Shown one piece after another: positions 1,118 to 10,964 of a stretch of DNA of 64,000 nucleotides. Position 1 is the stretch's first letter, and each line of letters opens with the position of its first letter. The DNA comes from a virus. Taxonomy: Duplodnaviria > Caudoviricetes. The position numbers were made by a program, and so were the translations under genes. The stretch is from IMG/VR virus record IMGVR_UViG_3300044719_000253, positions 128,001 to 192,000 of that record, one strand, 5' to 3'. The notes under the pieces were generated by a model. It ran no database searches. It was not told the DNA's origin and worked only from the letters and a program-made list of their open reading frames with translations.

Positions 1118-2146
1118 TTACGCGAAGCTAACGCTGTTGACTTCGTCGTCGTCGTCCATCTCCGCTTCGAGTTGATCCGGCAGCGGGCGGTTGGCCGCGT
1201 CACGCAGATCGGCGATAATCTTCGACACCAACCCGTCGGTGATCAGATAGTTGGCCGACGTGCCATCGAAAGCGTTGCTGGCAGTCAGGTTCGGCACGAA
1301 GCCCACAGCCTGGTATTCCGGCATGTAGTCTTCGGGCAGATCCGTATGCACCCCCTGACGGGCCAGCGTAGCCACCGACAGGATGTTGCCGATCTTGTCG
1401 AGATCCGCTGCGAACAGATCGTCGTCCGCTTCTTTCGACCCGCCACGCAGCAGGATGTTCAGGCTGAACAGCTGCGGCTTCAGGCCGGACGTGATACCCG
1501 GCTTGGTGAAGTACAGCCAGTTGCGCAGGTCCATCGGGTCGAGTTCGCTGTTGCGGTTCGAGTACAACAGGCCGAGGTAGGTGATCGTCGACAGCATATG
1601 GTCGTTGACCTTGTCACGCGGCATGTTGACCGAGTTTTGCAGGTAGCTCATCACGACCGGGGCATTGCGTGCCTTGGCGATTTCCTGGTAGTTCTTGATC
1701 GTGGCACGGGTGTTGTTGATTTCGCGACGTGATGCGATCACGCCGATCAGCAGCACGATGGTCTGTTGACCTGCCGCCAGCAGTTCCGTCACGATCGACG
1801 GCGCCAGCACCGAACCGGAGCCACCAGCACCGGTGGACAGCACGATGTTCAGGTCGAGCGGTGGATGGGCCTTCAGGATCGGCTTGGTGTGTTCACGTGC
1901 CAGCGCCAGGTTTTCGGTGCGGTCTTTACCCGAACCCTTGGTCTTGGGCAGCAGGTAGGTTTCCATGCCGAGCGTGTGGTCGCCCAGATTGGACACTGCG
2001 GTGTCGATTTGCACCGGCTCGAAGCTGGCCAGCATTTCCGGATTGATGCGGATCTTGCCGAGTTGGCTGGCGATGTTGATCGCGGCGCCGCCGCAGCAGT
2101 ACAGACGGATGCGGCCTTTGGGGGCGGTGTTGATAGTTTCGCTCAT
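1118..2146 (-). CDS. phuZ: PhuZ phage tubulin
   Basis: Tubulin/FtsZ motifs CCGGAAIN, QIDTA, GSGKDR and signature GAGGSGS; 342 aa with acidic C-terminal tail. Confidence 0.95.
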   Translation of the reverse strand: MSETINTAPKGRIRLYCCGGAAINIASQLGKIRINPEMLASFEPVQIDTAVSNLGDHTLGMETYLLPKTKGSGKDRTENLALAREHTKPILKAHPPLDLNIVLSTGAGGSGSVLAPSIVTELLAAGQQTIVLLIGVIASRREINNTRATIKNYQEIAKARNAPVVMSYLQNSVNMPRDKVNDHMLSTITYLGLLYSNRNSELDPMDLRNWLYFTKPGITSGLKPQLFSLNILLRGGSKEADDDLFAADLDKIGNILSVATLARQGVHTDLPEDYMPEYQAVGFVPNLTASNAFDGTSANYLITDGLVSKIIADLRDAANRPLPDQLEAEMDDDDEVNSVSFA

Positions 2147-4647: not shown

Positions 4648-5457
4648 GTGAATCCCATCACTAAAGCACTTGACGAGGTTGCCTTCCGGATTCCGCGTGA
4701 GATCCTGAAGGTGGTGTTCCTCGAACCATATCAACAGTACCGGGATCTGCCTGGTGATATCAAAGAACGCATTCGCTACCTCGTGCTGCAACAACGGGTG
4801 CTGGTTGACTGTAACTTGATGAACGGGGTGGAAACCCGCATCGATTTGTCGGATCTTCCCCGCGAATCGGTGGATGATGGCTACACCACGGTGTTCCGGA
4901 TCCCGAAGAACCGCACCAACGGTCGTTCGATCCTGAGCGTGTTCGATGTGACGTACGGCGACCTGTATAACACCCAATCTGGGTATGGGGTATATTCTTA
5001 CAGCCGATCGAGTCCGGCATTGCAACTGGCCAATGCTGCAATGGAAGCGCAAGTGCGTACGCCGTATGTCGGCTCGACCCGGGTGGAATTGATCGGGGAA
5101 AACGTCATCATGGTGCAAGACGCGATCATCCTACCCCAGAATCTGTATCTGCGCTGCTCACTGGAGAACGATGAGAACCTGTCGAATATCCATGCTCGCA
5201 GTTATCTGGTGTTTGCCCGGTTGGTGGAACTCGCAGTCAAGGCGTATATCTACAACTCCTACGTGATCCGTCTGGATATCGGCGAACTGCGCGCAGGTGT
5301 GCAGATCGGTAAGATCAAAGAAATCATCGATGGGTACGCAGACGCAGAACAAATGTATCAGGACCATCTGAGGGAAGTTTGGAGTAAGGTCTCGTTCATG
5401 AACGATCAAGAATCGATGCGACGTTACATGAGCCTGATGATCGGCTCGTCGCGGTGA
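4648..5457 (+). CDS. conserved phiKZ-like protein, probably virion structural
   Basis: 269-aa ORF, GTG start with AGGAG SD, TATG late-type motif near 4592, ends at a palindromic terminator. N-terminus MNPITKALDEVAFRIPREIL resembles jumbo-phage core proteins as recalled. Confidence 0.6.
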   Translation: MNPITKALDEVAFRIPREILKVVFLEPYQQYRDLPGDIKERIRYLVLQQRVLVDCNLMNGVETRIDLSDLPRESVDDGYTTVFRIPKNRTNGRSILSVFDVTYGDLYNTQSGYGVYSYSRSSPALQLANAAMEAQVRTPYVGSTRVELIGENVIMVQDAIILPQNLYLRCSLENDENLSNIHARSYLVFARLVELAVKAYIYNSYVIRLDIGELRAGVQIGKIKEIIDGYADAEQMYQDHLREVWSKVSFMNDQESMRRYMSLMIGSSR

Positions 5458-5754: not shown

Positions 5755-6444
5755 TTACGCGGCCAGATGTTCTCCGGCACGCAGACCAGGATGGCGACGC
5801 GAACCGTCCACGTCACTTTTCTTGAAGAAAGGTTTCTTCTCACCTTGCTTCTTCACATCATGGGAGGTCAAGCGCGGTTGGGTGGACCGCGCGACCGGGT
5901 GATGCGCACGACGCCGTGGCGGCAGCCCATCGTTGATGTCGATCTTCTGGGTGAAGTCGATATCCATCTGTTCTTCCAGATCTGCTTGGAAGGTCGGCGA
6001 GAAGATCCAGTTCTTCATGTCGTAGTCACCCAGGAAGCGCCAACCCTTGCGCTTGAACACCCGCATCGCCATCTTGGTGAAACTGATGGTGGTGTGCATC
6101 TGCGGCACCACGCCGACGATTTGCCCGGATTTGGTCACGCGATAATCCTTTTCTCGAGCATGGAATACCACCACCCCATAAGGCGTACCCATCACCAGAA
6201 TCAGGTTGTTCAGATGTTGCTTGGTTTCATCCGGGTGCTTGGCGTGGATACGCGCCGTTTCACCCGCCTTCAGCACTACGCGGTCTTCCGGATGGTCGAC
6301 GATCGGCATGAAGTTCGCGTACGGCCCGATGCGCTCGCGCCCCATGAAGGCGTGCTTGTACGCGATCTGAGTGCCGTCCGCTTGGTATGCGCGGTAGAAA
6401 CCTTCGATCGTGCGCTGCTCGTTGATGTGTTCGACTTTGCTCAT
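5755..6444 (-). CDS. hypothetical protein, strongly C/G-ending codons, basic C-terminal tail
   Basis: SD AAAGGGA before ATG at 6444 (MSKVEH...). The track's upstream start at 6528 is less likely. Confidence 0.75.
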   Translation of the reverse strand: MSKVEHINEQRTIEGFYRAYQADGTQIAYKHAFMGRERIGPYANFMPIVDHPEDRVVLKAGETARIHAKHPDETKQHLNNLILVMGTPYGVVVFHAREKDYRVTKSGQIVGVVPQMHTTISFTKMAMRVFKRKGWRFLGDYDMKNWIFSPTFQADLEEQMDIDFTQKIDINDGLPPRRRAHHPVARSTQPRLTSHDVKKQGEKKPFFKKSDVDGSRRHPGLRAGEHLAA

Positions 6445-6496
6445 GGTGATCCCTTTCTTTGTTATGGAGTTATCGACAATGTTTCTACTGGACATC

Positions 6497-6769
6497 TTAT
6501 TCCCGGATTGGAATATTTTTTGATACAAAGTCCTTTCGCGGATGAATAAAAGGAACGGGGTACAAATTAGTTACACAGAGCCATACTGCGCGATGCCTGT
6601 GGTGCACCACAGGCATCGGCAATCTGGGTAACTTGGGCGATGATGCCGGTGGGGTGGTGGGTCGGTGATCCCGAACCAACCACCATAACAACCCGGCAAT
6701 AATAACAGGTAGCATAAAAAAGCTCCTTAGCGCTAGGGATAAATTCCATCCATTTATCTCTAACGCCAA
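6497..6769 (-). CDS. possible small membrane protein
   Basis: 90-aa ORF with hydrophobic FFMLPVIIAGLLWWLV; start uncertain. Confidence 0.35.
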   Translation of the reverse strand: MALEINGWNLSLALRSFFMLPVIIAGLLWWLVRDHRPTTPPASSPKLPRLPMPVVHHRHRAVWLCVTNLYPVPFIHPRKDFVSKNIPIRE

Positions 6770-6772
6770 GCG

Positions 6773-7000
6773 TCACAGATCGATGGGAATGTCTTTGGTC
6801 TTGGCCAATGCGATCAACTCGTCAATCGCGACTTGAGCATCGTCGCGGGTGTGTGCGTGATTGCATCGTTCGAATAAGGCATTGATTTCATCAATGTCCG
6901 CTTGGTTGCTGGCAGCTTCATACAACAGAACTACGACGCGTGCGGCAATACGGCGCAATCGTAATAGTTCAATTTGTTTCTTTAATAAATTGAAGGTCAC
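6773..7000 (-). CDS. small helical hypothetical protein
   Basis: GTG start at 7000 with SD AAAGGGA; helical composition. Confidence 0.6.
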   Translation of the reverse strand: MTFNLLKKQIELLRLRRIAARVVVLLYEAASNQADIDEINALFERCNHAHTRDDAQVAIDELIALAKTKDIPIDL

Positions 7001-7041
7001 GGACAATCCCTTTATCGTTATCGACAAAAACAACCTACAAG

Positions 7042-7070
7042 AGAGAGTTGGGTATCCCCCAACTCTCTCA
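7042..7070 (-). terminator. intrinsic terminator ending the membrane-protein operon
   Basis: 12-bp stem GAGAGAGTTGGG/CCCAACTCTCTC followed by TTGTAGGTTGTTTTT on the minus strand. Confidence 0.7.
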
Positions 7071-7182
7071 GTAGTGTATTGCTTAACTAAAATTGCCCGC
7101 CATCACATTCGTTCCGATGAAGAGGAATGCGGCAAGCAACAACGATCCCAGGACTTGTCCCAGAGTCGGATGCTGGATTGCT

Positions 7183-7878
7183 TTAGGCGCCAGCGGGTGC
7201 AGCTTCAGGTGCGCTTTCAACAGTGACCTCCGTCGCGGTGGTGTTGCGGTTGAACAAACCCTTCGCCCAGTTCCAGGCCGAAACCAGCCAACCTTTGGCG
7301 GTCGCGGTGGCTTCGACCAGCCAGTGGCCGATCCGGGTGAAGATCGAGGCAGTGCCAGCGTCGACCGGAGTCGACTCGACCGTGGCGTCGGTCATTCCGG
7401 ACACAGAGGATACTGCGGTGCTGATATTTTTACCACGGAGCCAGAACCACAAGCCGGCGGCGCCGGCGAACACGGTCAGCGCGCCCGCGATCGCTTTCTT
7501 CTTGTTACCGGCCACCCAGGCTTTGAAACGGGCCCACAGACTGGGCTTGGCTTCTTTGACCGCAGCGGGAGTAACGTCCAGCTTGATCTGGGCAGCTGCC
7601 GCGTTGTTCAGACCTTCGAGGGCGACGGCGAGCTTGGCACCGACACCACTGGTGTCACCAGCCGGCTGTTCGATTTCGAGCAGACTAGCGTCCAGGCCGA
7701 TCGAGGTGAGCATGGTCTTGATCTCGATTTCGAGGTTTTCGCGATCTTGGCCGGTGGCGGTGACGAGTTGATGACGCTTGATGTTGATCTGGTCCTTGAC
7801 CACTTGGAATGCGTGGTTCAGTTCTTTCACGCTCGGTTGACGGGTGGTGGCTTCTTTAGCTTGATGGATGTTATTCAT
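7183..7878 (-). CDS. membrane protein: N-terminal coiled coil, one TM helix, Trp-rich amphipathic helices
   Basis: SD AGGAA before ATG at 7878; TM AIAGALTVFAGAAGLWFWL; amphipathic SLWARFKAWV and GWLVSAWNWAKGLF. Confidence 0.8.
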   Translation of the reverse strand: MNNIHQAKEATTRQPSVKELNHAFQVVKDQINIKRHQLVTATGQDRENLEIEIKTMLTSIGLDASLLEIEQPAGDTSGVGAKLAVALEGLNNAAAAQIKLDVTPAAVKEAKPSLWARFKAWVAGNKKKAIAGALTVFAGAAGLWFWLRGKNISTAVSSVSGMTDATVESTPVDAGTASIFTRIGHWLVEATATAKGWLVSAWNWAKGLFNRNTTATEVTVESAPEAAPAGA

Positions 7879-7931
7879 GATAGATTTCCTTGAATTGATT
7901 TGATAAGTGTGTCGGTTAACTTGGACGAGGT

Positions 7932-8288
7932 TCACGGCATGTTGGGGTCGGGTTGCTTAGTCCCGCTGGTTCGAAGGATCAGAGCGAATACAGCAGCCAC
8001 CAGCAACCAGGGCAGCAGGAACAGGAAGCCCATGACGATTTGGTGGATCAGCCAGACTGCCCCCACAAAACCGAGTGCGTCCAGCAGCGCATCACCCAGG
8101 TAGGCGACCGGCGAAGCATGCGGCACCGTCTCGACTTCTTGACCACCGATGATGACCTTGGCGGCTTTAAAGGCGAGATGGGCTTTACGCATCGTTTGCG
8201 CGATGCGGCGCGCTTCCTGCCATCCGGTGGGTTTCAGACGCAGGATATTCGCGATAAACACGGCGGCCGTGTCGAAGAATTGATTCAT
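7932..8288 (-). CDS. small membrane protein (2 predicted TM)
   Basis: SD AAGGAG; hydrophobic C-terminal half; overlaps the upstream stop. Confidence 0.75.
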   Translation of the reverse strand: MNQFFDTAAVFIANILRLKPTGWQEARRIAQTMRKAHLAFKAAKVIIGGQEVETVPHASPVAYLGDALLDALGFVGAVWLIHQIVMGFLFLLPWLLVAAVFALILRTSGTKQPDPNMP

Positions 8289-8581
8289 GTGGACTCCTTG
8301 AGTTGCAGCACGGTGTTGTGCACGATTTGCAATCCCACCACCCCGAGGTCAATTAAGAACAACAGAGCGATAAGCGGCGGCACACCGATACTGGCGATTG
8401 CGCATAACAGGAAAAACGACCACACCAGCAAACGCCAGAACGCAAAGACCAAATGGCCCGTGCTGATCGGTTGCGCTTGCAAGGTGGCGTGGATCAACCC
8501 CACCACCGGTGCGACCACTGCGGTGGCGATGATTTTGATGGAAAAGATGAGACTTTTGATGAAGCTTAATACCTTACGCAT
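8285..8581 (-). CDS. small membrane protein (2-3 TM, GVP kink)
   Basis: SD AAGGAG before ATG at 8581; segment AIASIGVPPLIALLFL. Confidence 0.75.
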   Translation of the reverse strand: MRKVLSFIKSLIFSIKIIATAVVAPVVGLIHATLQAQPISTGHLVFAFWRLLVWSFFLLCAIASIGVPPLIALLFLIDLGVVGLQIVHNTVLQLKEST

Positions 8582-8620
8582 GACAAACTCCTTGTGTGGG
8601 CATAACACCCACACCTGAGA

Positions 8621-8893
8621 TCAGGCGTAGGCGTTAGCGGTGTCTTTGAAAATGTTACCAAACGTAGCGAACACGTCGCTATAGACCATAATCCGTAGCG
8701 CCAGCAACACCGCCACGTATTCGAAGAAAAACAATGATACGATGCCTAAGGTTAGATACAACGCTAAGCGACCGACGTATTGTTTATCGATCTCATCGAC
8801 CTGACCCTGCTGGGTGTGTTCGATGAGGCGCATGAGGCCACCGATCGTATTTCGATAGAAGGCCTGCACAAACTTCTGGAGGAAATCCCACAT
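8621..8893 (-). CDS. small membrane protein
   Basis: 90 aa, starts 3 nt after the upstream stop; LALYLTLGIVSLFFFEYVAVLLAL. Confidence 0.7.
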   Translation of the reverse strand: MWDFLQKFVQAFYRNTIGGLMRLIEHTQQGQVDEIDKQYVGRLALYLTLGIVSLFFFEYVAVLLALRIMVYSDVFATFGNIFKDTANAYA

Positions 8894-8896
8894 GGC

Positions 8897-9256
8897 TCAG
8901 ACAGCCGCGACAACGGGTTCCTCAACGGCTTCGCCACGGTGGTCTGCAGCGGCTTTATTAATCAGGGCCATGAACAGCGCCAGACCAGCCGAACCACTCA
9001 GGACCAGGAAGCCGATATAGACGACTGCGATCGCAAGCGAGATCCAGAACCAGACCCAAGCCAGGGCCAGCAGGATCGATGGCACACCGACGAACCACGA
9101 CGCCATGATCGCGACACGCGAGGCGGCATTGAGTAGGCAGACGACTTTCTCGACCACCGTTTTGGTGGCGAGATTCTTCAGTTCGACGATCGGGGAGATG
9201 AAGAGTGCATAAGCGAACTTCGCTGCCCCCACGAGAATAGCTTTGAGGAATTTCAT
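8897..9256 (-). CDS. small membrane protein (2-3 TM, GVP kink)
   Basis: SD AAGGA before ATG at 9256; WFVGVPSILLALAW. Confidence 0.75.
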   Translation of the reverse strand: MKFLKAILVGAAKFAYALFISPIVELKNLATKTVVEKVVCLLNAASRVAIMASWFVGVPSILLALAWVWFWISLAIAVVYIGFLVLSGSAGLALFMALINKAAADHRGEAVEEPVVAAV

Positions 9257-9272
9257 GGTGAGTCCTTGTGAA

Positions 9273-9641
9273 TTAGACGAGTTCAACGTCGATCAGGTCC
9301 GGGCGCAGTGCGTGCTCGGCTTCATAAACGCAGTGGATCAGGTAACCGGTGATGAGAATCGCCAGCACATTGGCCACCAACGATGGCAACAGCAACCCGA
9401 ACAACAGAGTCAAGCCCGCGATCGAGAGGATGATACCAGCCGTCAGGCACATCGCCAGCGTCATCGCGAGCAGACCACCCAGCACGACCTTACCGATGAG
9501 GCGCAGGGTCCAGTCGATCTTGATACCATTCTTGATAGCGATCAGCGGGGCCATGCATTTCGCGATGGCGGTTTGGGTTTTGGCGATCGGGGCAGCGAAC
9601 CAACCGATGATGCGGTGAAACCATTTCTTAATGACGTTCAT
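9273..9641 (-). CDS. small membrane protein (2-3 TM)
   Basis: SD AAGGAA before ATG at 9641; amphipathic N-terminus MNVIKKWFHRIIGWF and long hydrophobic core. Confidence 0.75.
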   Translation of the reverse strand: MNVIKKWFHRIIGWFAAPIAKTQTAIAKCMAPLIAIKNGIKIDWTLRLIGKVVLGGLLAMTLAMCLTAGIILSIAGLTLLFGLLLPSLVANVLAILITGYLIHCVYEAEHALRPDLIDVELV

Positions 9642-9687
9642 TTTTAATTCCTTGTCAATGAGGGAGCTGTCACTCCCCGTGTTGCAA

Positions 9688-10101
9688 TTAGGCCGGCACC
9701 GCATCAGCGATGATTTCCTGGGTGAAGGTGTTCACACGAACTTCCAGCAGCAGGGCGACTTTGTAGCTGATCATAGCGCGAGCGATGGCAGCACCGAAAT
9801 CGTTACCAGCCAGATACGCCAGCGGAACACCGATCAGACCCAGGATCGGGCCAAACAGCAGCGAGCTGATCACACCGATCACGAAGCCGATGGTGAAAGC
9901 GATCGTGAAACCCAGCAGGAAAGCGGCGGTTTTGCACAGCAGGCCTTGCAGACGCTTGGTGAAGTTGTCTTCGGCGTCGGCTTGCGCGGACAGACGATCG
10001 CCGTAGTAGTTGACCTTGGCGACTTTGTCGGCGAGATAATCACGGGCGACGCAGTACGCGTTTTGGACATTGGCCCAGAGTTGCTTGAAGAATGCGTTCA
10101 T
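9688..10101 (-). CDS. small membrane protein (2 TM, GVP kink)
   Basis: SD AAGGAA; MNAFFKQLWANV; LGLIGVPLAYLA. Confidence 0.8.
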   Translation of the reverse strand: MNAFFKQLWANVQNAYCVARDYLADKVAKVNYYGDRLSAQADAEDNFTKRLQGLLCKTAAFLLGFTIAFTIGFVIGVISSLLFGPILGLIGVPLAYLAGNDFGAAIARAMISYKVALLLEVRVNTFTQEIIADAVPA

Positions 10102-10138
10102 GATGGTTCCTTGATGTTGTTGGTTATTGCGGAATGGA

Positions 10139-10507
10139 TTAAGCCGCTTTGCGCTTAGCGCGGTTGTGCTTCGGGGCTTTGTAGGTCTTGTGATTCATTT
10201 CACGTTCGATACGCACCAGCGTGGCTTCGTCACCTTCCTTAGCAGCCTGGAAAGCTTCGGTCAGCGAATAATTACGGAACTTGGCGATTTCCATAATACG
10301 GTTAAACAGACCATGGATACGTTCAGCTTTGTCTTCTTGGCTTTCTGCGGCGACTTCCGCAACCGTGTTGGTTTCGACAGCCACCTCGGCTACCACCGGC
10401 ACTTCAGTGATTGCAGTTGCGGCTTCGATCTTAGCCACTTCTTTGCGGCTGAACAGATTCGAGAAGAACGACTTGACTTTGTTCCACAGATTTTTGATGA
10501 ATTGCAT
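10139..10507 (-). CDS. hypothetical protein with N-terminal amphipathic helix and basic C-terminus
   Basis: SD AGGAG; MQFIKNLWNKVKSFFSNLF; first gene after the 10574-10598 promoter. Confidence 0.8.
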   Translation of the reverse strand: MQFIKNLWNKVKSFFSNLFSRKEVAKIEAATAITEVPVVAEVAVETNTVAEVAAESQEDKAERIHGLFNRIMEIAKFRNYSLTEAFQAAKEGDEATLVRIEREMNHKTYKAPKHNRAKRKAA

Positions 10508-10573
10508 GATAGACTCCTGGATGTTGTTAGTTATCAGGGGATAAAGGAGGCATTCCTTTTCCTATTCACCACT

Positions 10574-10598
10574 GTTATATGGTTTTGAAAAAATCTAG
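10574..10598 (-). promoter_or_regulatory. putative early promoter variant CTAG-N13-CATATAAC
   Basis: Same CTAG and 13-nt spacer as the 4614 copy; upstream of the membrane operon. Confidence 0.55.
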
Positions 10599-10652
10599 CG
10601 CCATATCAAAACAGCCCTCAGGCATGGGCACATGCCCATGCCTGAGAATCTG

Positions 10653-10964
10653 TTACATTTCCAAACGCCACACTGTGTTGAGGTCGATCAGGATCAACGT
10701 GATCGTATTTTTCTTCCGGGACGATTCCGAGAAACAACTCACCACACTGAAGGTGGCGTGGTTCTCGTGTTCATCGAGTTCACCATCGTCGAATTCATCC
10801 ACCAATTTGATACCGTTGATGGTCGTGTTGCGGTTACACAGCGCGAGTTGTTCCCGCGTGGTATCGTCCGGCTGGTGAATCGTCAGGGTTTTGATAGTGC
10901 CATAAACGGCGGTTTCCACCCTGATGTGTTTGGCACGGATGATCAGGTTGTCGAACTGAGGCAT
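10653..10964 (-). CDS. hypothetical protein
   Basis: 103 aa, SD AAGGA. Confidence 0.65.
   Translation of the reverse strand: MPQFDNLIIRAKHIRVETAVYGTIKTLTIHQPDDTTREQLALCNRNTTINGIKLVDEFDDGELDEHENHATFSVVSCFSESSRKKNTITLILIDLNTVWRLEM

Follow-up and report, generated by a model that had tools for sequence, protein, structure and literature searches.

A lineage-specific operon of nine small genes that may encode a membrane-embedded assembly in uncultured nucleus-forming phages

A nine-gene transcription unit

We describe here a compact operon of small genes carried by an uncultured tailed phage. The DNA analyzed is a stretch of 64,000 nucleotides (the window) that corresponds to bases 128001 to 192000 of the linear IMG/VR viral contig IMGVR_UViG_3300044719_000253, which is 226 kb in length and estimated to be 83% complete. 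Positions are those of the window unless a genome coordinate is specified, which equals the window position plus 128000. The operon is one transcription unit of nine tightly packed, co-oriented minus-strand genes (g1 through g8 and s9), bracketed by two strong hairpin terminators and equipped with one promoter-like element. At least eight related contigs from uncultured phages retain it in nearly the same gene order. We tentatively favor the view, to which we assign a probability of roughly 45%, that this is a lineage-specific operon expressed as one unit from an early-type phage RNA polymerase (RNAP) promoter, and that its products are parts of a cytoplasm-facing, membrane-embedded assembly.

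An initial annotation of the window, made from the sequence alone, had described eight consecutive minus-strand genes, and all eight reading frames are indeed present between positions 7183 and 10507. Their start codons are backed by orthologues that align from residue 1, and every one of them scores as coding with a crude codon-usage caller. This count fell one short, however, in that a ninth gene (s9) had been overlooked. Good Shine-Dalgarno (SD) sequences had also been ascribed to the set; seven of the eight genes carry one of the CAAGGA(G/A) type, but g5 has none. Because the start codon of g5 sits 3 nt past the g4 stop, its translation is probably coupled to that of g4. The single terminator proposed for the end of the operon is a strong intrinsic hairpin (positions 7041 to 7069, minus strand), in which a U-rich tail comes after a GC-rich stem of 12 bp (dG −30.9 kcal/mol, z −6.9). 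The 5′ boundary of the unit is formed by the hairpin terminator of an upstream operon that contains a SLOG gene (10615 to 10648, minus strand; 15-bp stem, dG −34.6 kcal/mol, z −7.2).

The ninth gene, s9 (7083 to 7220, minus strand), encodes a 45-aa peptide with a single transmembrane (TM) segment. It begins with a TTG codon six bases past a GGAGG SD located inside the end of g8, and it overlaps the 3′ end of g8 by 38 nt in a different reading frame. The same overlap with the g8 homologue exists in every relative examined, the most distant included. The gene is kept in seven genomes, and it is called or conserved in the relatives L003, L004, L007, L008, L011, and L013. Invariant Ser, Ala, Phe, Asn, and Gly residues lie within its TM helix, and its ratio of nonsynonymous to synonymous substitution rates (dN/dS) is 0.10 to 0.20.

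Predicted membrane architecture

The proposal that seven of the genes encode membrane proteins is borne out by Kyte-Doolittle windows, which place TM segments in g2 through g8 and none in g1. With s9 included, eight of the nine operon proteins carry TM segments. Most members had also been said to begin with an amphipathic helix. We ranked all 235 proteins of the genome by the hydrophobic moment of residues 2 to 16, and the operon proteins occupy ranks 2, 3, 4, 10, 16, 19, and 32 (Mann-Whitney p = 2e-5). Six of the nine have moments of 0.46 to 0.69 (ranks 2 to 19).

Proteins g2 through g7 each begin with a Lys/Arg-rich part, after which come a TM hairpin or three helices joined by very short loops; this arrangement suggests an N-in/C-in topology. 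All of their genes lie on the minus strand. The 137-aa g2 protein (9688 to 10101) combines an N-terminal amphipathic helix with a TM hairpin at about residues 53 to 99. In g3 (122 aa; 9273 to 9641) such a helix precedes a hydrophobic stretch at residues 46 to 106 that accounts for two TM segments, and in g4 (119 aa; 8897 to 9256) an amphipathic or hydrophobic N-terminal helix precedes a stretch at residues 38 to 101 with a conserved V-P turn. The shortest of these six, g5 (90 aa; 8621 to 8893), has an N-terminal amphipathic helix and one or two TM segments. About three TM segments and an invariant G-V-P are found in g6 (98 aa; 8285 to 8581), whose stop codon overlaps the g7 start as ATGA. The g7 protein (118 aa; 7932 to 8288) consists of a conserved N-terminal soluble part of 60 aa and a C-terminal TM hairpin.

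The largest product, g8 (231 aa; 7183 to 7878, minus strand), has an N-terminal helical hairpin, a variable acidic linker, an amphipathic helix plus one TM segment (residues 129 to 147), and a Trp-rich amphipathic C-terminal helix. Its AlphaFold2 (AF2) model places helices at residues 17 to 40, 44 to 60, 114 to 149, and 179 to 209; the mean predicted local distance difference test (pLDDT) score is 58, and the N-terminal hairpin is predicted with confidence. The one member that lacks a TM segment, g1 (122 aa; 10139 to 10507, minus strand), is likely peripheral. It comprises an N-terminal amphipathic helix, a disordered Ala/Val/Glu linker, a small three-helix domain, and a basic Lys-rich tail. 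The AF2 model of g1 (pLDDT 72) is consistent with this layout, with a helix at residues 2 to 20, values below 50 at residues 28 to 51, and values of about 90 across the three-helix domain (residues 57 to 105). All 12 g1 homologues have the invariant N-terminal helix and an FRNY.L.EA core. A comparison of the g1 model with the PDB and the AFDB clusters revealed no fold match with E <0.2.

The C-termini of these proteins also have a common trait. Seven of 11 operon families end in Ala, often as -AA, -PAA, or -AGA, compared with 16% of the other proteins of the genome. These endings occur in g1, g2, g4, g6, and g8, and in the extra genes of L003, L004, and L010. They may serve as a degradation or recognition tail.

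Conservation, paralogy, and selection

Relatives of the operon were found in IMG/VR by two routes. Two contigs (L003 and L004), located through the PhuZ flank, carry all eight of the longer genes in order, with protein identities of 48 to 71% compared with 79 to 84% for PhuZ. Protein look-ups added six more (L007, L008, L009, L010, L011, and L013) that exhibit the same layout and the same flanks, although some of their members are only about 21 to 35% identical to those of the window. Across relatives the operon varies from eight to 10 genes. Two additional genes, encoding a TM paralog (xA) and the soluble protein xB, are present in L003 and L010, whereas L004 has only the extra xA. In L007, g3 and g4 are swapped; in L009, g6 is absent and there is an additional g4-like gene; and L011 lacks g1. 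A core composed of a g2-like gene, g4, g5, g7, g8, and s9 persists in all relatives, including the most distant. The xB protein (about 155 aa; L003:1338-1823, L010:7269-7733, L008:1-381) is absent from the window and joins a g1-type N-terminal helix to a conserved domain that makes up about 110 aa at the C terminus.

An exhaustive profile search with g8 returned 26 matches among 1.84 billion protein representatives, of which about 24 to 25 are credible, most being 200 to 265 aa in length; P0034, a large repeat protein, and P0042, which is eukaryote-like, were judged spurious. For g1 there are 12 clusters and for g7 there are 16 (117 to 123 aa). All are unnamed and reside on contigs of at most 273 kb.

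Pairwise dN/dS values are 0.10 to 0.68 for eight of the nine genes, with g2 the highest (up to 0.68); dS is partly saturated, and g5 yielded no dS estimate. The dN values of the operon are three to five times that of PhuZ. The operon members are thus genuine genes that purifying selection maintains even though they evolve rapidly.

It had been suggested that several members are divergent paralogs, and that a G-V-P helix kink in g2, g4, and g6 marks this relationship. Some paralogs do exist, but not among this trio. Pairwise comparison of the eight operon proteins by BLASTP and phmmer found nothing significant. Profile-profile alignment with hhalign scored xA with g2 at 95% and xA with g3 at 92%, both over nearly the full length, and g3 with g4 at 32%. 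The g3 profile also matches g2- and xA-type proteins of L009 and L010. In contrast, g4 with g6 scored 0.8%, and the pairs g2-g4 and g2-g6 are outside the top pairs, which argues against G-V-P as a mark of common descent. The motif itself is present, and the Pro between two TM helices is conserved inside each family. Judged by these profiles, g2, g3, and xA are one diverged family, perhaps together with g4, whereas g5, g6, g7, g8, and s9 stand alone. A further hhalign score of 94% connects the N-terminal 22 residues of g1 and xB. Searches of all open reading frames of the genome with hidden Markov models of the operon proteins found no paralogs elsewhere.

A probable early-type promoter and a conserved leader

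The upstream promoter element placed at positions 10574 to 10598 by the initial annotation sits within a 51-nt block (10553 to 10603, minus strand) that is nearly invariant in L003, L004, L007, L009, L010, and L011, whose proteins are 30 to 70% identical. The block reads TGGCGCTAGA, a T-rich tract, and then CCATATAAC, and it is a variant of a genome-wide CTATAT[CT]ACTA family. Both the promoter and its leader are retained in all lineages. Paralogous copies of the block occur at genome positions 10891 and 216333. The family has 13 strong sites, all on the minus strand with A/T-rich upstream tracts, several of which also have a GGCGCTA box. These core sites are concentrated in small-gene regions; one is just before the chimallin gene and others are near phuZ, and those inside the window are at positions 453, 4614, and 13366 (minus strand). 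The CTATAT[CT]ACTA sites are probably the early promoters used by the virion RNAP of this phage. The operon site has both the T-rich tract and, upstream, the GGCGCTA box, but its core is degenerate, such that it ranks as the 16th best position weight matrix site in 226 kb (17.6 bits). Most relatives have a core that is closer to the consensus.

Published studies describe the early promoters of phiKZ as an extended −10 element with a T-rich tract upstream that can be found computationally before early operons (PMC7598289), and place an early promoter before phiKZ gp54 (PMC8244752). Because the operon promoter belongs to a motif family that precedes the chimallin gene and that resembles phiKZ early promoters, early expression is likely. 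The earlier proposal that the operon is "probably early" is thereby upheld by analogy of promoter class, with the reservation that the copy at the operon is a weak variant. A scan for sigma-70 promoters found fewer sites than in shuffled sequences, and therefore a host-type promoter is unsupported.

Downstream of the promoter core, and starting right after a conserved G[UC]GAAU box, is a 5′-leader RNA hairpin (10539 to 10562, minus strand). It occurs at one position in eight leaders even though the stems differ (for example, AAAAGGA/UCCUUU, AAACGGU/ACCGUUU, and AAACAG/CUGUUU). The leaders were folded singly, with individual z-scores of −1.1 to −3.5, and covariation was judged by eye only. A leader with G[UC]GAAUA[AG]G and a hairpin is common to three sites of the genome, namely the operon and the regions at about genome positions 10856-10886 and 216299-216328 (both minus strand). 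The other two genes with this leader encode a 344-aa protein that is weakly glycosyltransferase-like and a 110-aa protein without an assignment. Another leader box, TAACTAACAAC (10523 to 10533, minus strand), lies just 5′ of the g1 SD and recurs before g2 as TAACCAACAAC (10108 to 10118). Boxes of the form TAAC[CT]AACAAC lie directly 5′ of the SD in 16 minus-strand genes (g1, g2, and 14 others), and they may act as a translation enhancer or a processing site.

Phage lineage and database searches

The premise that the phage is phiKZ-like holds, since both chimallin and PhuZ are encoded. PhuZ is at positions 1118 to 2146 (minus strand; phrog_4733, E 1.9e-64), and the chimallin homologue is at genome positions 117276 to 119021 (minus strand), where it matches phiKZ gp54 with 25% identity over residues 17 to 569 (E 8e-19). 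The gene order (terminase, a 415-aa gene, a variable slot, a DUF7484 gene, and phuZ) is that of Ralstonia phage RSL2, a member of the genus Chiangmaivirus within the Chimalliviridae. By its gene content, therefore, the genome is that of a nucleus-forming chimallivirus: it has the chimallin gene as well as PhuZ and a gene order in common with a classified member of the family. Identity to the closest PhuZ proteins from cultured phages is only about 33%, which points to an uncultured lineage. The variable slot contains the operon and is bordered by the DUF7484 protein (4648 to 5457, plus strand; E 1e-85).

The initial annotation had predicted that no standard annotation would name any member, and this proved to be so: Pfam, PHROGs (cut-off E <0.001), PADLOC, and NCBIfam give no family for any operon protein. 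The PADLOC matches are weak, composition-driven hits to TM effectors (E 0.002 to 0.04), and they do not amount to a known defense or counter-defense system. PHROG scans of each member of the g8 and g1 alignments yielded no consistent family; one g8 relative of 16 has a weak match to an Rz-like spanin PHROG (E 0.007). Among 50,697 phage records, megablast found no match to the operon locus, and tblastn found none to g1, g2, g8, or three distant g8 relatives. ESM Atlas look-alikes for g8, g7, and g2 provided nothing usable. Pilin or pseudopilin, TatA, and FliQ-like flagellar export-gate identities were considered and dropped, as there was no family match. From these sequence comparisons, the operon proteins constitute about ten new protein families.

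Across jumbo phages, the module is present in at least eight uncultured relatives, but the searches detected it neither in phiKZ and RSL2 nor in the other cultured phages covered. In RSL2-type phages the corresponding slot is filled by different small proteins that are unrelated to those of the operon, and two or three of these have TM segments. In phiKZ, no such cluster of small membrane proteins is present around phuZ and gp42.

A tentative function and its competitors

If our favored interpretation is correct, then g2 through g7 would each lay an N-terminal amphipathic helix in the plane of the membrane and follow it with a TM hairpin, leaving both ends in the cytoplasm. The overlapping g8 and s9 genes would supply a single-pass pair, and g1 would be a peripheral protein that is tethered by its N-terminal helix and displays its three-helix domain and basic tail. 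Made early in infection, these proteins might enter the host inner membrane, or a membrane derived from it, from its cytoplasmic face and jointly alter its properties. Candidate roles include remodeling or sealing at the site of entry, exclusion of further phage, and the blocking of a host membrane process. Joint action is plausible because the genes have stayed linked over deep divergence, their reading frames are coupled, and their N-terminal motif is common to many of them.

Several of the results presented above weigh against this interpretation. The absence of a detectable module in phiKZ, RSL2, or any cultured phage implies that it does not serve a general chimallivirus function. Six of the eight families have no detectable mutual similarity. 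The gene set also differs between relatives (L009 has no g6, L011 has no g1, and others have extra paralogs), which argues against a rigid machine of fixed stoichiometry. Finally, the promoter core of the operon is degenerate (CCATATAAC versus CTATATCAC), scoring 17.6 bits compared with 32 to 43 bits for the 13 core sites.

Some of these same observations would be expected if the operon were instead a co-transcribed set of separate small early proteins for host takeover or accessory purposes. Each might act on its own target in the host membrane (division, transport, respiration, or a defense effector), with no single complex being formed. Gene content that ranges from eight to 10, with loss of g6 or g1 and duplication of g2-, g3-, or g4-type genes, fits this explanation. 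So do the rapid evolution of the proteins (dN three to five times that of PhuZ and a dN/dS of up to 0.68 for g2), the lack of relationship between most families, and the occupation of the RSL2-type slot by other, unrelated small TM proteins. However, independent effectors would not obviously account for a core (g2-like, g4, g5, g7, g8, and s9) that stays together in nearly the same order in the most distant relatives. Overlapping or abutting frames suggest coupled synthesis, and an N-terminal helix motif that is common across families suggests one site of action. We regard separate effectors as doubtful, although this is the alternative that survives best.

Nucleus-forming jumbo phages begin infection inside a lipid vesicle, and the initial annotation had drawn on this fact. 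The operon proteins might be inserted in this early-infection vesicle or in another intracellular membrane, where they would remodel it, attach it to the chimallin shell as this forms, or open it so that the genome can be handed over. This idea suits a chimallivirus with a probable early-type promoter, and an amphipathic helix plus hairpin with cytoplasmic ends would be appropriate for insertion from the cytosolic side, by analogy with the membrane-shaping proteins of eukaryotic RNA viruses. The one vesicle study searched here reports no phage-encoded protein of the vesicle membrane; the word "transmembrane" does not appear in its text, and the membrane proteins it describes are those of the host. 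Yet the vesicle is a family-wide structure that arises before any phage protein is made, whereas the module occurs in a single uncultured clade and went undetected in both phiKZ and RSL2. Such a restricted distribution makes a vesicle function common to the whole family unlikely, and we consider one that is specific to this clade improbable as well. By the same measure it is a long shot that the operon is the first case of a nucleus-forming phage making its own membrane-shaping machinery, with proteins that would insert from the cytosol into the vesicle or the inner membrane and remodel, dock, or open it as the genome passes to the chimallin shell. It is less likely still that the operon proteins anchor the PhuZ spindle at a membrane.

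Another candidate is a lysis-control cassette, in which holin, antiholin, or pinholin-like proteins and their regulators would time the permeabilization of the membrane. Several members do have the class II holin architecture, being 90 to 140 aa in length with two TM segments and a likely N-in/C-in topology, and the weak spanin match of one g8 relative in 16 (E 0.007) also points in this direction. We nonetheless judge a lysis cassette to be unlikely because there are no lysin or spanin neighbors and no family matches, and because the promoter is probably of the early type. Specifically, no member matches a holin, spanin, or endolysin family in Pfam, PHROGs, or NCBIfam, and neither a Pfam domain of any kind nor a lysin or spanin domain is found in the five flanking genes. 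The promoter is a site of the kind found ahead of chimallin, not of the late kind. Moreover, nine conserved genes far exceed known cassettes, and the C-termini are Ala-rich rather than highly charged.

The least probable alternative, which we give very little credence, is that the proteins are virion-associated or ejected membrane-active factors whose genes adjoin those for packaging and structure. The operon is about 6.5 kb from the terminase and a gene for a virion structural protein, and packaging might in principle be directed by the common N-terminal peptide. Against this, the operon has a probable early-type promoter and separate terminators, its nearest neighbors (SLOG, DUF7484, and PhuZ) are non-structural, and multi-TM hairpin proteins are not known among the capsid contents of chimalliviruses. 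A capsid-targeting signal of the T4 type was likewise dropped, since these are TM proteins behind an early-type promoter.

Comparison with known systems

Among known phage proteins, T4 Imm and Sp offer one point of comparison. These are early, small inner-membrane proteins that exclude superinfecting phage, and the operon products are similarly small, probably early, and free of enzymatic domains. Unlike the one or two genes of T4, however, the operon has a conserved nine, and no N-terminal amphipathic motif is shared. No PHROG match at the cut-off used, and no tblastn match for g1, g2, or g8 in the phage records searched, places the operon proteins in the Imm or Sp families. Class II holins or pinholins and their antiholins resemble g2, g3, g5, and g7 in size (90 to 140 aa), in having two TM segments, and in the probable cytoplasmic location of both ends. 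They differ from the operon, which has Ala-rich C-termini, a probable early-type promoter, no match to a holin family model for any of its nine proteins, and no linkage to endolysin or spanin genes among the five flanking genes.

The N-terminal helices are reminiscent of the membrane-targeting helices of MinD, FtsA, SepF, and MreB in being short, rich in Lys and aromatic residues, and high in hydrophobic moment. The moments of 0.46 to 0.69 in six of nine proteins (p = 2e-5) and the predicted helix at residues 2 to 20 of g1 suggest a helix of this type. Residues 6 to 19 of g1 also give a weak match to FtsA_C (E 0.053) that is below the cut-off. The targeting helices of SepF and MreB are N-terminal, as they are in the operon proteins. 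The rest of each protein is unrelated, however, and in six operon proteins the helix is joined to TM hairpins. Two more proteins of this genome have a MinD-like amphipathic start, namely a soluble 224-aa protein (MWNFFKKLFGGK...; genome 14880-15554, minus strand; L019:581-1255) and an 83-aa TM protein (MNLFRRFWFNY...; genome 45580-45831, minus strand). Neither matches any operon profile, and the 224-aa protein has no Pfam match.

In eukaryotic viruses, amphipathic-helix and hairpin proteins shape replication membranes. The likeness of the operon proteins to hepatitis C virus NS4B and NS5A and to reticulon-type hairpins would be one of architecture only, with an in-plane helix and a hairpin inserted from the cytosolic side, made by a virus that compartmentalizes its replication. 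There is no homology to the proteins of positive-strand RNA viruses or to reticulons, and the host here is bacterial. Small TM proteins encoded side by side are also found in PRD1, PM2, and phi6 (P9 and P12), but these build a virion membrane and have no homology to the operon proteins. Chimalliviruses are tailed and are not known to have a virion membrane.

If the operon products do shape or gate membranes, then they would offer a specific set of genes with which to study the handling of intracellular membrane by a bacterial virus. Even otherwise, the operon defines about ten new families, a membrane-helix motif common to their N-termini, and a promoter and leader element that an uncultured clade of jumbo phages has conserved. 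What limits the weight of these findings is that model phages have no detectable counterpart of the module and that no host is in culture.

Neighboring genes and additional sequence elements

Two proteins are encoded directly downstream of the operon, one of 257 aa (5755 to 6528, minus strand) and one of 86 aa (6773 to 7033, minus strand). Both are kept beside the operon in most relatives, and neither has a Pfam match. They may functionally be part of the module. The DUF7484 protein at the border of the slot is a conserved chimallivirus gene product, the counterpart of phiKZ gp42 by its N-terminal sequence and position and of RSL2 ORF012 by position and length.

About 15 copies of a GC-rich hairpin immediately followed by TATGCCGTC occur on both strands of the genome, for example at positions 498 and 13407 (minus strand), and about 10 more copies of TATGCCGT occur without a hairpin. 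The late-promoter core of phiKZ is TATG, and by analogy the sites with both a hairpin and TATGCCGTC may function as a combined terminator and promoter for the non-virion RNAP (nvRNAP).

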